A DNA stretch of 64,000 nucleotides from Candidatus Levybacteria bacterium RIFCSPHIGHO2_02_FULL_40_18 (GTDB taxonomy: Bacteria > Patescibacteriota > Microgenomatia > Levybacterales > GWA1-39-11). The notes beneath the pieces are model-generated. The model saw nothing but the letters and a program-made list of their open reading frames with translations, did no database searches and was not told the DNA's origin. The position numbers were made by a program, and so were the translations under genes. Where the stretch lies: contig MFOC01000007.1 of assembly GCA_001782235.1 (NCBI GenBank), forward strand, positions 156,040-220,039, read 5' to 3'. Shown here one piece after another: positions 24,110 to 59,865 of the stretch. The stretch's first letter is position 1; every line of letters starts with the position of its first letter.

Positions 24110-25309
24110 CTAAAGGGCTAGGAGGGCGAGTCCGGCGACTATTGTCAGGATTATTGCCCCGATTATGCCAATAGTTTTTGCTACCTCCCCGGGCGGCGGA
24201 ACAGTTGGAGCAGTTGTTGGAACAGCTGTAGGGGAGGATGTTAGCGTACTTGTTGGGGTGAGCTGGCCGGATGATGTGCCTGTTGGCGTTGGCGCCGCCC
24301 CGGTGGGGCTCTGCCCCGGAGGGGGCGCGGTCGTAGCAGATCCTGCCGCTGTTGCCGTTATTGTTTGAGTACATGCAGTTGAAATCTTACCTCCATTATC
24401 CGTAAATACCGCTGTTGCGCCAAATGTTCCCGCAGACTGATATGTATGATTAGTTTGAATAGTAGCGGATTTTTGTCCAAGACCCTCCGTTATATCCTGA
24501 ATACTTCCATCGCCAAAGTTAAAAGATGCTTTTGTTAAGGTTCCGGCTGCGTCTGGATCATTGCCTTTGGCGGTTAGGGAAACTGAGAAAGGGGCGCTGC
24601 CTGTGACAGAAGGACTTACAGATAATTCTGTACAGAGAGGTGCTTGATTTGCAGTGCCTGTTGGAACAGTAGTGGGTGCGCTTGTTGGTGAGATTGTGCC
24701 AGTTGGCTGGGTTCCTGTAGGTGTCACAGTAGGTGTGACGGTTCCGCCAGTTGTACAGGCGTCAGACCCTATAGTTACATTTGCCGTAGAGACTTGAAAC
24801 AATACATTTTCGGTTGGTTCATCAGCCGGCGCCAGAGAGAAAACACGAGATTTCTCCGAGTCAAATGATATCTGTGCGCTTCCTGCTGCTTTTGGACGGA
24901 AGGTAACCGTGGCAACCTTTGAGACTACTTGTACGGCCCGTGTGACATCTGCTCCAACAGAGACGGACATATTTGCTTCTCCGCTTGAGACGCTGACCGG
25001 TCTCACTACTGTTGAAAAACTATCACTTTCTTTAATTTGTAGGACATCAAGTTTGGTAGGATCATATTTAAGGTAAAAATCAACTATAGAAACAATATTA
25101 GAGCTGGGATCGAGCATGATATCAACATTGAAATTTTGACATTGAGTTGAAGTATTTACATTTTCAGGACTAAAGGTGAGTTTTGAAGAAGGAGCGGCAC
25201 GACTTCGCAGTTCTTGTTGTCTTTTAATAAAAAAGAGAGTGAGGGGAATGCTTATCAAAAGCAACAATAAATTCCCAAGTATAAAATACCTGTTGGTTAA
25301 AATTTTCAT
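24110..25309 (-). CDS. Membrane-anchored surface protein with PKD-like domain and Thr/Pro/Gly-rich linkers
   Basis: N-terminal TM; NFGDGSIQDITE...HTYQSAGTFGATAVFTDNGG (PKD-like); C-terminal TM anchor. Contains GC-rich 35-nt motif copy A at 24291..24325. Confidence 0.5.
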   Translation of the reverse strand: MKILTNRYFILGNLLLLLISIPLTLFFIKRQQELRSRAAPSSKLTFSPENVNTSTQCQNFNVDIMLDPSSNIVSIVDFYLKYDPTKLDVLQIKESDSFSTVVRPVSVSSGEANMSVSVGADVTRAVQVVSKVATVTFRPKAAGSAQISFDSEKSRVFSLAPADEPTENVLFQVSTANVTIGSDACTTGGTVTPTVTPTGTQPTGTISPTSAPTTVPTGTANQAPLCTELSVSPSVTGSAPFSVSLTAKGNDPDAAGTLTKASFNFGDGSIQDITEGLGQKSATIQTNHTYQSAGTFGATAVFTDNGGKISTACTQTITATAAGSATTAPPPGQSPTGAAPTPTGTSSGQLTPTSTLTSSPTAVPTTAPTVPPPGEVAKTIGIIGAIILTIVAGLALLAL

Positions 25310-25377
25310 TCAATGATGCCATTATAGCGTAGAAGATTTCATAGGATAAGTCAATAATTAGCAGTCAACAACGCCAC

Positions 25378-25406
25378 TTGACAAAATTAGGAGTTTTTTT
25401 TAAAAT
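25378..25406 (+). promoter_or_regulatory. Candidate groES promoter (TTGACA-17-TAAAAT) with overlapping GTCAA-N9-TTGAC inverted repeat
   Basis: ttgaca at 25378-25383 and taaaat at 25401-25406. Inverted repeat gtcaa caacgccac ttgac at 25364-25382. No canonical CIRCE is present. Confidence 0.4.
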
Positions 25407-25424
25407 ACTTAATTGATTTCTATT

Positions 25425-25730
25425 ATGGCAAAGACCTCTACAGTTAATATAAAGCCTTTATTTAATAATGTTTTGATAAGGCCGCTTGAGGCAGAAGAAA
25501 AAACTTCTGGCGGTATTTATTTGCCTGAAACCGCAAAAGAAAAACCCCAAATGGGACTCGTCATGGCAGTTGGTGAGGGCGAAGTTACTCCCAAAGGGGA
25601 AGTTCGTAAGATGACTGTCAAGGTTGGACAAAAAGTAATGTACAAAAAATGGGGCGGAAATGAAATCAAAGTAGGCAATGAAGAATGGACGATTGTTGAA
25701 GAGAAAGATATTCTTGCAATAGTTAGCTAA
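25425..25730 (+). CDS. groES: Co-chaperonin GroES
   Basis: NIKPLFNNVLIRPLEAEEKTSGGIYLPETAKEKPQMGLVMAVGEG is a typical Cpn10. Confidence 0.9.
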   Translation: MAKTSTVNIKPLFNNVLIRPLEAEEKTSGGIYLPETAKEKPQMGLVMAVGEGEVTPKGEVRKMTVKVGQKVMYKKWGGNEIKVGNEEWTIVEEKDILAIVS

Positions 25731-26039
25731 CAATTGCAATATAAAAAATAAAATATAAAATAGCAAAAATACATATCAAATATAAAAAATGAAAGGCAAA
25801 GAATCAGCTTCGAGAGCACCAAGGGTTAAACTGCAGACAGTTGGTAGTTTTTCGGAAGCAGCAGACATGCAGACAAAGAGAACAAGACCTACAGTAATTA
25901 CAGGTTTATCTATTGAAGGAAGTTGGGCAAAAGAAGCAAGAGAGGCAAAACAAAGAAGAGAATCGAAGCAAAATAGCTAAATATTTGATATTTGATTTGT
26001 ATATTTAATTTTTAATATTTAAGATTTTATATTTATAGT

Positions 26040-58296: not shown

Positions 58297-58390
58297 GGTG
58301 AAGATGGAAGCGCTCTGTTTGTGAATTTGTTTCCGAATAAAATCGGAATTCGCCAAAAGGCGAAAGAGCGCTTCCGGATCGACACGGATG

Positions 58391-58915
58391 TTACCTTCTG
58401 ATGCCGTTGATGAGCATTTCGGGCGACGGGTCTTGCCAAGGGCTGTTGTCGAACGCGACAGTTGCGACGTATCCTGCGATGCACAGTACGCAGAACGTGA
58501 CTACCCATGGGTCGGAGTGGAACTTGGTGATGATGAGAATCCCGCTCCAGAGCACAAGGTAGAATAGCACGGCAAACATGGCAGTGTGCCAGATTTGGCT
58601 CGGAAGCCAAGAAATTGCCGCTTCGCGTCCAGGCGCCGATCTTGTCTCGATCGCAATCGAGATGACGAGTCCTACTATGAGTAGTGTGACGTGCCAGTAG
58701 AAGTTGCCTTGAAGCCCAGTAACATCTTTGTCCTGGATTAGTATTGCTGCACCCACACCGTAAAGAGCGAGTAGAATGTCGCCTACCTTGAATGACCACC
58801 AGCGTGTCCAGTAGAAATGCCCTTCCCAGATAACCCTGATGTAGAGGATTGCGCCCCATTGGATCGCGAGCATAAAAAGTCCGGCCTCGACAGGGCTGTT
58901 CCAGATTGGGAGCAT
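58391..58915 (-). CDS. Polytopic (about 5 TM) membrane protein of unknown function, encoded in a ~52% GC island
   Basis: A hydrophobic, sensible 174-aa ORF. The overlapping 277-aa Arg/Cys-rich ORF at 58287..59120 is judged a spurious frame of the same GC-rich DNA. Confidence 0.4.
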   Translation of the reverse strand: MLPIWNSPVEAGLFMLAIQWGAILYIRVIWEGHFYWTRWWSFKVGDILLALYGVGAAILIQDKDVTGLQGNFYWHVTLLIVGLVISIAIETRSAPGREAAISWLPSQIWHTAMFAVLFYLVLWSGILIITKFHSDPWVVTFCVLCIAGYVATVAFDNSPWQDPSPEMLINGIRR

Positions 58916-58975
58916 GAGTTCCCTCCTTGCAAGGTGGATTCATGGTTCGATCTTGCCTCACCATGCCTTGTACCG

Positions 58976-59335
58976 CTAGTCTTCGGCCTCCATTCCGGCA
59001 ATACCGAAGAGAACCAAAATTGCCAAGAGGATCAAGCCAAGTAATGCGGCCATCACCACTAGCACAGGCTCTCCTGTCAAGATGAAAGACGGTATTCCGA
59101 TCAGTGCTATAATCACCCATATCACTACAGTCGCTATGGTAAGAAGCGGATAGGACTTCAGCATTTTCTGCAAGCCATCCCTAACGAGATCGGTAACTCC
59201 CCAAACAAAGAAAATCAGGAAGCTGATAGCGTTGATCATGATTCTTCCTTTCTTTTGTCGCGATGCGACTGATACTTTGATCCGTGTCGATGTCAAAGAG
59301 CCAAGAGTCTCGATACCTCGCCATAGGCGGGCCAC
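58976..59335 (-). CDS. Small (3 TM) membrane protein of unknown function in the GC-rich island
   Basis: Likely starts at the internal Met (MINAISFLIFFVW…). A TTGCCC-17-TATAAT promoter candidate sits on the minus strand at 59350-59385. Confidence 0.3.
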   Translation of the reverse strand: MARLWRGIETLGSLTSTRIKVSVASRQKKGRIMINAISFLIFFVWGVTDLVRDGLQKMLKSYPLLTIATVVIWVIIALIGIPSFILTGEPVLVVMAALLGLILLAILVLFGIAGMEAED

Positions 59336-59439
59336 ACAGCTATTGTGTGTTTACGAGAAGCTTTCTCAAGGGCTGTATTATACTCTTCGACTTCGCTCAG
59401 GGCAAACCAAAACTATAAGGTGAGGGAGTTGGGGAAAGA

Positions 59440-59865
59440 CTATAGCTGTTTTACGTCGTCCTCGATGCCTTTAAGATCGGTCTCAGGGCTTCCAAGATCG
59501 ATTGTTTCTATATCTTCTTCAGAAAGCGGCGTGGGCGTTGGTGTTAGCGTGGGCGTTGGAACCTGTGTAGGGGCCGGAGTTACCTGTGCGTTGTTCTGAT
59601 TATTAAGCTGAGTTGCCAAGAAATAAGTTACCCCAAGAACTATAAGCAAAAGAATTCCAACTGCAATAAATAAAACCATTTTACTGTTCGGCGGCATGGC
59701 AGGCCCTCCTTGACTTGCGGGTGGTGTGAGGGGAGCAGTCGGTTGAGGAGGTGTTGGCGCCGCCCCGGAGGGGCTCTGCCCCGGAAGGGGTGGTGCGGGC
59801 GGAACGTTTCCCACAGGCACAGTGGGATTGTCAAGAGTTTGATTTTGTGGTTGATTTGGGTCCAT
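59440..59865 (-). CDS. Pro-rich single-TM protein, hypothetical
   Basis: PPAPPLPGQSPSGAAPTPPQPTAPLTPP ... TM ... TPAPTQVPTPTLTPTPTP. Contains GC-rich motif copy C at 59756..59790. Confidence 0.35.
   Translation of the reverse strand: MDPNQPQNQTLDNPTVPVGNVPPAPPLPGQSPSGAAPTPPQPTAPLTPPASQGGPAMPPNSKMVLFIAVGILLLIVLGVTYFLATQLNNQNNAQVTPAPTQVPTPTLTPTPTPLSEEDIETIDLGSPETDLKGIEDDVKQL

Follow-up and report, generated by a model that had tools for sequence, protein, structure and literature searches.

A candidate GC-rich palindromic mini-insertion of about 30 nucleotides, found in frame in unrelated genes of Levybacteria-like genomes

The DNA considered here, 64,000 nucleotides of contig MFOC01000007.1 from Candidatus Levybacteria bacterium RIFCSPHIGHO2_02_FULL_40_18 (in the following, the window), carries three copies of a GC-rich palindromic repeat, each within the coding sequence of a different protein, and the same repeat is found in further unrelated genes of other low-GC contigs. 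The repeat is an insertion relative to the orthologues of its host genes. It is probably a dispersed palindromic mini-insertion that spread at the DNA level and persists only where it lies in-frame in loops, linkers and tails, and sequence comparison supports the view that the identity of its nucleotides reflects copying between non-homologous genes, and neither convergent composition nor paralogy. Within the window the pattern GGCGCCGCCCCGG(A/T)GGG(G/A)CTCTGCCCCGGA(G/A)GG has three matches, all on the plus strand, which differ from GGCGCCGCCCCGGWGGGRCTCTGCCCCGGARGGG by 0, 1 and 0 mismatches in copies 1, 2 and 3 respectively:

Copy 1, 24291..24324 (core 24291-24320), plus strand, in the linker that joins the PKD domain of host gene 1 to its C-terminal anchor
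Copy 2, 34486..34519, plus strand, with G to A at position 18, in the interdomain linker of the PEGA-SH3 protein of host gene 2
Copy 3, 59756..59789, plus strand, in the Pro-rich N-terminal region of the small protein with a single transmembrane segment encoded by host gene 3

An earlier, sequence-only reading of this DNA had claimed three same-strand copies, and this is borne out: none of 100 dinucleotide-preserving shuffles of the window contains a match to the pattern, and a repeat search of the window recovers the same three-member family. Its figure of over 85% GC for the element also holds (the consensus is 88% GC), but the genome value of about 36% that went with it does not, the window measuring 39%. 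When 155 nt round each copy are aligned the likeness is confined to about 40 nt and the flanks are otherwise unrelated. A profile made from 12 copies picks out exactly 3 full copies in the window (35-37 bits), the next best hit staying below 5 bits; the scores are bimodal and there are no degenerate variants in the window, and so ordinary Pro/Gly codon usage is ruled out as the cause. Many degenerate Pro/Gly variants are what the earlier reading had expected to speak against copying, and nothing intermediate was seen when they were looked for by profile. Independent assemblies (ENA, JGI, Logan and a Hainich assembly) carry the element, and a PEGA-SH3 protein identical to that of host gene 2 is present on contigs of the ENA, JGI and Logan assemblies, for example ANAN16-1_SAMN03842439 scaffold_1054. 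With the same context in these three sets of assemblies, no match in the shuffles, no intermediate variants and the frame kept in every coding copy, an origin by chance, codon bias or assembly artefact has next to no probability.

The copies are read on the minus strand in three different proteins, as had been claimed:

Host gene 1, 24110..25309, minus strand, Cohesin and PKD domains, an N-terminal transmembrane segment, and a C-terminal (V/I)PP(P/T)G plus hydrophobic tail resembling a sortase signal
Host gene 2, 34246..35136, minus strand, PEGA and SH3_3 domains, an N-terminal transmembrane segment
Host gene 3, 59440..59865, minus strand, 141 amino acids, Pro-rich with one transmembrane segment, no Pfam match

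A single peptide, P(P/L)PGQSP(S/T)GAAP, had been read in all three proteins. This is right for copy 1 (PPGQSPTGAAP) and copy 3 (LPGQSPSGAAP) but wrong for copy 2, where PSGAESLRGGAP (PSGAESLRGGA) is read in another frame, and the use of the same DNA in two frames within the window indicates an origin at the nucleotide level. Some gene callers start host gene 3 at Met57, downstream of the element, and homologues align from residue 1. As a separate observation, the C-terminus of the Cohesin/PKD family, (I/V)PP(T/P)G and then a hydrophobic segment, is like a sortase sorting signal (24110-24200 and orthologues; L028 5263-5862), and a sortase gene lies about 4 kb past the right end of the window.

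The core of the element (positions 1-30, GGCGCCGCCCCGGAGGGGCTCTGCCCCGGA) is exactly 10 codons long and shows 6 substitutions in 360 positions across 12 copies (about 1.7%); positions 31-34 are variable, and with this variable end the length is 33-34 nt. On the usual sense strand it reads CCCC-TCC-GGGGC-AGA-GCCCC-TCC-GGGGC-GGCGCC, that is, two tandem units with an inner 5-bp hairpin, an alternative hairpin formed through the shared central arm, an outer stem of 4 bp, frequently broken (positions 31-34), and a palindromic GGCGCC head. The GGGGC-TCT-GCCCC palindrome and the GCCCCGGAGGG direct repeat, both described in the earlier reading, are found in the element as claimed. Its predicted RNA fold has an energy of -16 to -22 kcal/mol and the motif 34-mers rank 1, 4 and about 16 of 31,984 on the coding strand (mean -3.0), the hairpin being strong in absolute terms, as expected from base composition. 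The sole core change of copy 2 (GCCCC to GUCCC in the mRNA) keeps the pairing as G-U. Scans with Rfam and for tRNA gave no match, so that no known RNA of the window is indicated as the origin of the motif. None of the six frames of the element contains a stop codon, and three readings are in use: PPGQSPSGAA, PSGAEPLRGGA and, from the opposite strand, RRPGGALPRR (GHRPGGALPRR in MurB). At seven of the eight coding sites the reading is in one of the two sense frames whose products are uncharged Gly/Pro/Ser/Ala peptides (P about 0.003 under equal use of six frames).

Beyond the window, 185,579 genomes of species representatives were scanned for exact matches and gave one low-GC contig only, L001, from which it follows that the source genome and most of its relatives are not among these representatives. 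A metagenome scan matched 16 stretches, and 11 of these are low-GC (38-44%) contigs in which the element is complete, down to the GGCGCC head, which lay outside the search pattern; the 30-nt core in the low-GC contigs is about 98% identical. The GC-rich contigs L003, L004 and L012 were set aside as chance matches, and L009/L015, a eukaryote-like contig with a retrotransposon reverse transcriptase, as unrelated. The hosts on the low-GC contigs are as follows:

L002/L013, fn3/Big_13 surface protein, in the C-terminal linker, read as PPGQSPTGAAP
L005/L010/L011/L017, DUF5666 protein, three distinct orthologues (L011 and L017 being the same in sequence), read as PGQSPSGAAP
L006, PEGA-SH3 orthologue, read as PSGAEPLRGG
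L008/L016, ATP synthase gamma, read as PGQSPSGAAP
L001/L014, ClpB-type AAA+ protein, in the C-terminal tail immediately ahead of its conserved end, read as PSGAEPLRGGA
L007, MurB, opposite orientation, read as GHRPGGALPRR

In L030 a variant of the element is intergenic, upstream of a TetR-like gene, and so the sites occupied number at least 8 unrelated coding and 1 intergenic (8 of 9 coding), with the host reading frame preserved in every coding copy. The element is thus confined neither to surface proteins nor to Pro/Thr linkers and keeps to no single frame or orientation, and the restriction to Thr/Pro-rich linkers of surface proteins which the sequence-only reading proposed falls with ATP synthase gamma, MurB, the ClpB tail and L030. 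Its central claim of nucleotide-level copying across non-homologous genes gains from the same contigs, as the element recurs there in unrelated genes and in several frames; confinement to homologous linkers of paralogues, which would have pointed to simple paralogy, is not what is found, the hosts being unrelated across contigs. No element match was seen in the viral contigs scanned, BLAST against phages and plasmids gave partial chance matches in GC-rich genomes only, and a profile of the frame-A peptide run against a database of 5.8 billion proteins found only P0121, the motif being too short for such a search (an exact match scores about 24 bits).

That the element is an insertion relative to orthologues is seen in several host families. 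Among 120 PEGA-SH3 orthologues the only carriers are the window, P0001 and P0002 and, from DNA, L006, whose copy is intact; an orthologue 87% identical (P0003) is without it, as are P0005/L024 and more than 110 others. P0003 and P0005/L024 are short by about 27-30 nt at the point of copy 2, the empty allele of L024 reading CCA ACG CCT followed directly by ACT CCG GAA, and in L025 a decayed copy of 27 nt, GCCGGGCAGGGCGTTCTTCGCGGCGCC, sits cleanly between flanks matching those of L024. Of the 79 orthologues of the Cohesin/PKD host only the window allele (identical to P0122) has the peptide, and homologues of host gene 3 keep the Pro-rich N-terminus while the window protein alone has the element peptide. 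The window also contains empty sites: its fn3/Big_13 gene (14129..15481, minus strand) has no element and the L002/L013 orthologue, about 72% identical, carries it, with linkers too diverged at the empty site for a nucleotide alignment to give clean boundaries; its ClpB (43574..46297, plus strand) has a C-terminal tail free of the element and the L001/L014 orthologue carries PSGAEPLRGGA there. In MurB of L007, compared with the structures 3tx1_A and 1hsk_A, an exact gap of 11 residues stands opposite ngeghrpggal, making an insertion of 33 nt between the FAD-binding and C-terminal domains, and in ATP synthase gamma the region is too variable against PDB structures for the insertion to be sized. 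Where sizes can be given, whole codons have been added, 9 in the decayed copy, about 10 in the PEGA-SH3 linker and 11 in MurB, and so the host protein just gains a short Gly/Pro/Ser/Ala-rich loop; the places it occupies are interdomain linkers, tails and loops. A comparison with relatives had been proposed along with the original claim of copying, and it shows close orthologues of the hosts to be without the motif.

These sites bear on the mechanisms that the sequence-only reading had listed (gene conversion, a mini-insertion element or a recombination hotspot), of which the data favour a mini-insertion element and make gene conversion through linker homology unlikely. In the latter case a linker cassette with no mobility of its own would pass from one Pro/Thr-rich linker (CCN/ACN repeats) to another among surface proteins, by homologous or microhomology-mediated gene conversion. 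It could draw on the 5 of 8 coding sites that lie in Pro/Thr-rich stretches, on the GG(C/T)GTT, encoding (A)PTP, that copies 1 and 3 and L002 share before the element, and on the A to T variant and similar linker-plus-anchor architecture common to copy 1 and L002. However the sites in MurB, ATP synthase gamma, the ClpB tail and L030 are without Pro/Thr-rich flanks, different frames and an opposite orientation are not a product of linker homology, and the flanks are unrelated past about 6 nt, so that conversion between linkers is an improbable source of the copies.

For the favoured mini-insertion the steps would be these. A 30-nt hairpin-forming repeat would spread into new sites of AT-rich Levybacteria-like genomes, members of the Candidate Phyla Radiation (CPR, or Patescibacteria), presumably with little regard to frame, and selection would purge those copies that break the frame, hit structured parts or encode Arg- or Cys-rich frames; purging of harmful copies would leave the observed bias to two benign sense frames. 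Quite how the repeat moves we infer from its structure: copying may need the hairpin or palindrome, either as the target of a trans-acting enzyme or as the driver of a hairpin-mediated recombination, as proposed for mitochondrial GC clusters.

Several observations weigh against a mobile mini-insertion. No transposase, RAYT-like (REP-associated tyrosine transposase) or other mobilising gene is seen among the about 57 open reading frames (ORFs) of the window compared with Pfam. Neither a target-site duplication nor a consistent target sequence could be defined from 11 aligned copies, though with flanks made of repetitive Pro/Thr codons short duplications would be hidden, and no parent element was found. 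The apparent copy number is low (3 copies in about 73 kb, and a single exact-core match in a 200-kb contig) and the sample is small, with about 10 independent sites. The fold is no more stable than that of composition-matched shuffles (Z about 0). One gene-relative orientation prevails in 7 of 8 coding copies, which could be due to a strand-specific function instead of filtering. Finally, the core is conserved at orthologous sites more strongly than would be predicted for a dead insertion left to simple neutral decay with AT-biased mutation. Among the three diverged DUF5666 orthologues variability reaches 32% over all sites and 52% at third positions, but the 30-nt core has 0 variable sites, where the 613 other 30-nt windows of the same gene have 9.5 on average and never fewer than 3; synonymous differences resume within 3-6 nt on either side. 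The cores of the window copy and of L006 differ at 2 positions, the mean for comparison being 7.1. Such conservation could come from recurrent site-specific insertion, from homogenisation by other copies, from biased conversion or from selection on the sequence.

It is this strong conservation at orthologous sites that leaves room for a functional cis-element under selection, be it a protein-binding site, a hairpin for mRNA stability or processing, or an interdomain translational pause, which would occupy tolerant coding positions because compact genomes have little intergenic space. The invariant core among varying synonymous neighbours in DUF5666 is in keeping with such a role, as are the low divergence (about 1.7%) of the 12 copies, which were taken from different organisms and sites, the strong orientation bias relative to transcription, the pairing preserved in copy 2, the mostly interdomain sites and the rank of the hairpins among the most stable in the window. 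Yet the element is patchy among close orthologues, with P0003 empty and the copy in L025 decayed, which weighs against strict selection; moreover the MurB copy is reversed and the L030 copy intergenic, the host genes have no function in common, Rfam gives no match, changes at positions 31-34 often disrupt the outer stem and the fold does not better that of the shuffles. On this balance a selected cis-element is an unlikely account, if one to be taken seriously.

The nucleotide conservation between species at orthologous sites, and the placement in protein segments that are poorly conserved, would also suit a motif resembling a DNA uptake sequence, built up by molecular drive (biased uptake and recombination) in naturally competent CPR bacteria, and type IV pilus machinery is encoded in the window. 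The uptake sequences of Neisseria and Haemophilus occur about once per kb. The element is present at about 1 per 20-200 kb (3 per 64-73 kb in the region of the window), is at 30 nt far above known uptake cores in length, and is new inserted sequence and not something created by point substitutions, all of which leaves an uptake motif very improbable.

A wider claim can be built on the favoured mini-insertion, namely that CPR/Patescibacteria harbour an undescribed class of palindromic elements of about 30-33 nt (10-11 codons) which actively colonise genes, the essential murB and atpG among them, and which would owe their near-identity across species and continents to a mobilising or homogenising machinery or to a host function of the hairpin. 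This is a tentative proposal, at present the less likely side of the question though well within reach. If true, in-frame selfish DNA would extend from the Rickettsia palindromic elements and fungal mitochondrial GC clusters to the CPR, with an element much smaller than any described bacterial one, and protein loops and linkers in these bacteria would have a way of gaining sequence. The conservation of the element raises the question of the enzyme or host factor by which, in minimal genomes, a 30-nt GC hairpin is recognised, and the element is a compact marker with which recombination and horizontal exchange can be followed in uncultivated groundwater bacteria. In annotation, inserts of this kind make proteins look more diverged than they are and may mislead start-codon calls, host gene 3 being an example.

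Other GC-rich or palindromic mini-elements stand near the copies or in the same genes. In the ATP synthase gamma gene (L008 1554-1590, and L016) a second GC-rich element, CCGGAGGCCCTCAGGGCCGGAGGCC (SGPEGLR), adjoins the main motif, and the two together add about 28 residues between the N-terminal domain and the C-terminal helix. L030 contains CCCTCCGGGGCGTAGACCCCTACGGGCCGGAGGCC, with modules common to the main motif and to the second element of L008. The PEGA-SH3 linker of other lineages has GC-rich palindromes, TCCGCCTTTGGCGGA in L027 (P0007) and AGCCGCGGGCT in L026 (P0013), which suggests that this linker repeatedly accepts hairpin-like inserts. Such GC-rich modules, adjacent or in the same linker, resemble the merging and shuffling of mitochondrial GC clusters (PMC8811140). 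At 11141-11171 a GC-rich motif (GGGGTCC..CCGCTCCGCGTCACCCC) forms the last codons (RGDAERQDPDHKL*) of the minus-strand ORF 11131-12948, and it shares the 17 nt CCGCTCCGCGTCACCCC with L013 759-790, read there in a different frame (RRGVTRSGGPP). Two further GC-rich stretches, 35225-35267 and 35333-35361, stand on either side of the stop codon of the methionyl-tRNA synthetase gene; one is a strong hairpin (CCGCCGAACTGGCGG...GGGGGAGGTTTTCCCCC) between this gene and host gene 2, and the other encodes the C-terminal residues of the synthetase (KSAPPLFPRLQ).

A second palindrome family, ACCCCGTTAGA-N9-TCTAACGGGGT, occurs at 5239-5271 and 62100-62132 with an identical 11-bp stem and different loops. 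It is read in-frame as 11 codons, (Y/N)PVRxxxSNGV, in two unrelated ORFs of the window, in a loop of a DUF2298 membrane protein (gene 4713-6980) and in a 248-residue ORF (61892-62638). The stem is found also in L008 (7406-7434), in L016 and in four viral contigs of IMG/VR (L031-L034), at least one copy there having the look of a terminator. That the window contains another family of in-frame palindromes suggests that the phenomenon is general in CPR genomes.

The window is otherwise ordinary chromosome, with genes for UvrD, TIM, LepA, methionyl-tRNA synthetase, GroEL, DnaK/DnaJ, ClpB, MurJ, glycosyltransferases and type IV pilus proteins, and the best named homologues are from Candidatus Levybacteria and Patescibacteria. 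An ordering of the copies by replication polarity is not supported, the sign of the GC skew round them being mixed. A direct repeat of about 145 nt (2520-2666 and 23953-24095, roughly 90-98% identity over matching blocks, no Rfam match) has one copy spanning the 5' end and upstream region of a UvrD-like helicase gene (637-2571, minus strand) and the other in the gap where LepA (stop at 23951) and host gene 1 (stop at 24110) converge. Several intergenic spots (4577-4700, 5899-6020, 63909-63973) hold AT-rich repeats, about 60 nt long and made of AGAAAATAG/TAGAAATTAG-type units, in both direct and inverted orientation. About 900 nt at 58300-59200 have 51-55% GC in this 39% GC window; an RNA gene was considered for them and rejected, as there is no Rfam match and the ORFs 58391-58915 and 58976-59335 look like membrane proteins, and a long ORF at 58287-59120 appears non-coding (rich in Arg, Cys and His). 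A small ORF at 56809-57207 is annotated as 23S_rRNA_IVP, or bAvd-like, the fold of an accessory protein of diversity-generating retroelements, and another gene of this kind is found just beyond the window.

As for known systems, a target of a diversity-generating retroelement is not indicated, there being no longer repeat round the motif, no pair of variable and template repeats, and no reverse transcriptase among the window ORFs scanned. A description of such elements in CPR bacteria was not found in the literature, the coverage of which was incomplete. Miniature inverted-repeat transposable elements have terminal inverted repeats and a target-site duplication, measure 50-500 bp and are related to a parent insertion sequence, whereas the present element is too short and shows neither duplication nor parent. 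DNA uptake sequences (those of Neisseria and the uptake signal sequences of Pasteurellaceae) are likewise conserved at the nucleotide level within coding regions at poorly conserved positions, but they are much shorter and born of substitutions, and the element here is a discrete insertion of 30-33 nt. Repetitive extragenic palindromic (REP) sequences, which RAYT (Y1) transposases mobilise, are extragenic and usually of high copy number, with a GTAG or CGTC tag (PMC3733652). With these and the bacterial interspersed mosaic elements the repeat shares its nature as a dispersed imperfect palindrome of 20-40 nt with a short non-palindromic "head", its place taken here by GGCGCC; it differs in being mostly intragenic and in lacking the GTAG/CGTC tag. 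The Pfam comparison of the about 57 window ORFs yields no RAYT.

Closer in manner are the Rickettsia palindromic elements, selfish DNA found in-frame in many unrelated genes, housekeeping genes included, where the added peptide is tolerated (PMC10969869). In-frame insertion into unrelated protein genes is common to both, but the Rickettsia elements are about 100-150 bp long with one conserved peptide each, as against 30-34 nt, three frames and a GC content much above that of the genome; they belong to another bacterial lineage, and the likeness is one of insertion mode, with no sequence similarity expected. The GC clusters of yeast mitochondria are short GC-rich palindromes with modular merging and shuffling and with in-frame polymorphism in var1, their means of mobility being unclear (PMC8811140). 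They too are palindromes of tens of nucleotides in an AT-rich genome (here 88% against 39% GC, with nested and alternative hairpins), they show presence/absence polymorphism and can sit in-frame in protein genes, and the element here also has two tandem hairpin units and neighbours sharing modules. However its host is a CPR bacterium and not an organelle, as pilus, Clp, DnaK and GroEL genes and best hits to Levybacteria show; the yeast clusters are numerous and mostly intergenic where the element is few in number and mostly intragenic in the sample; the AG/TAG terminal repeats of the clusters have no consistent counterpart at the ends of 11 aligned copies; and the clusters diverge rapidly whereas the copies here are far more uniform. 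Other fungal mitochondria have related double-hairpin elements and "byp" elements. The "byp" elements of Magnusiomyces are bypassed by the ribosome, in contrast to the present element, which is translated through, free of stops and with the host frame continuous. In-frame selfish palindromic DNA is thus known from other systems, and the element described here matches it in mode, though not in host, size, terminal repeats or the use of a single peptide.

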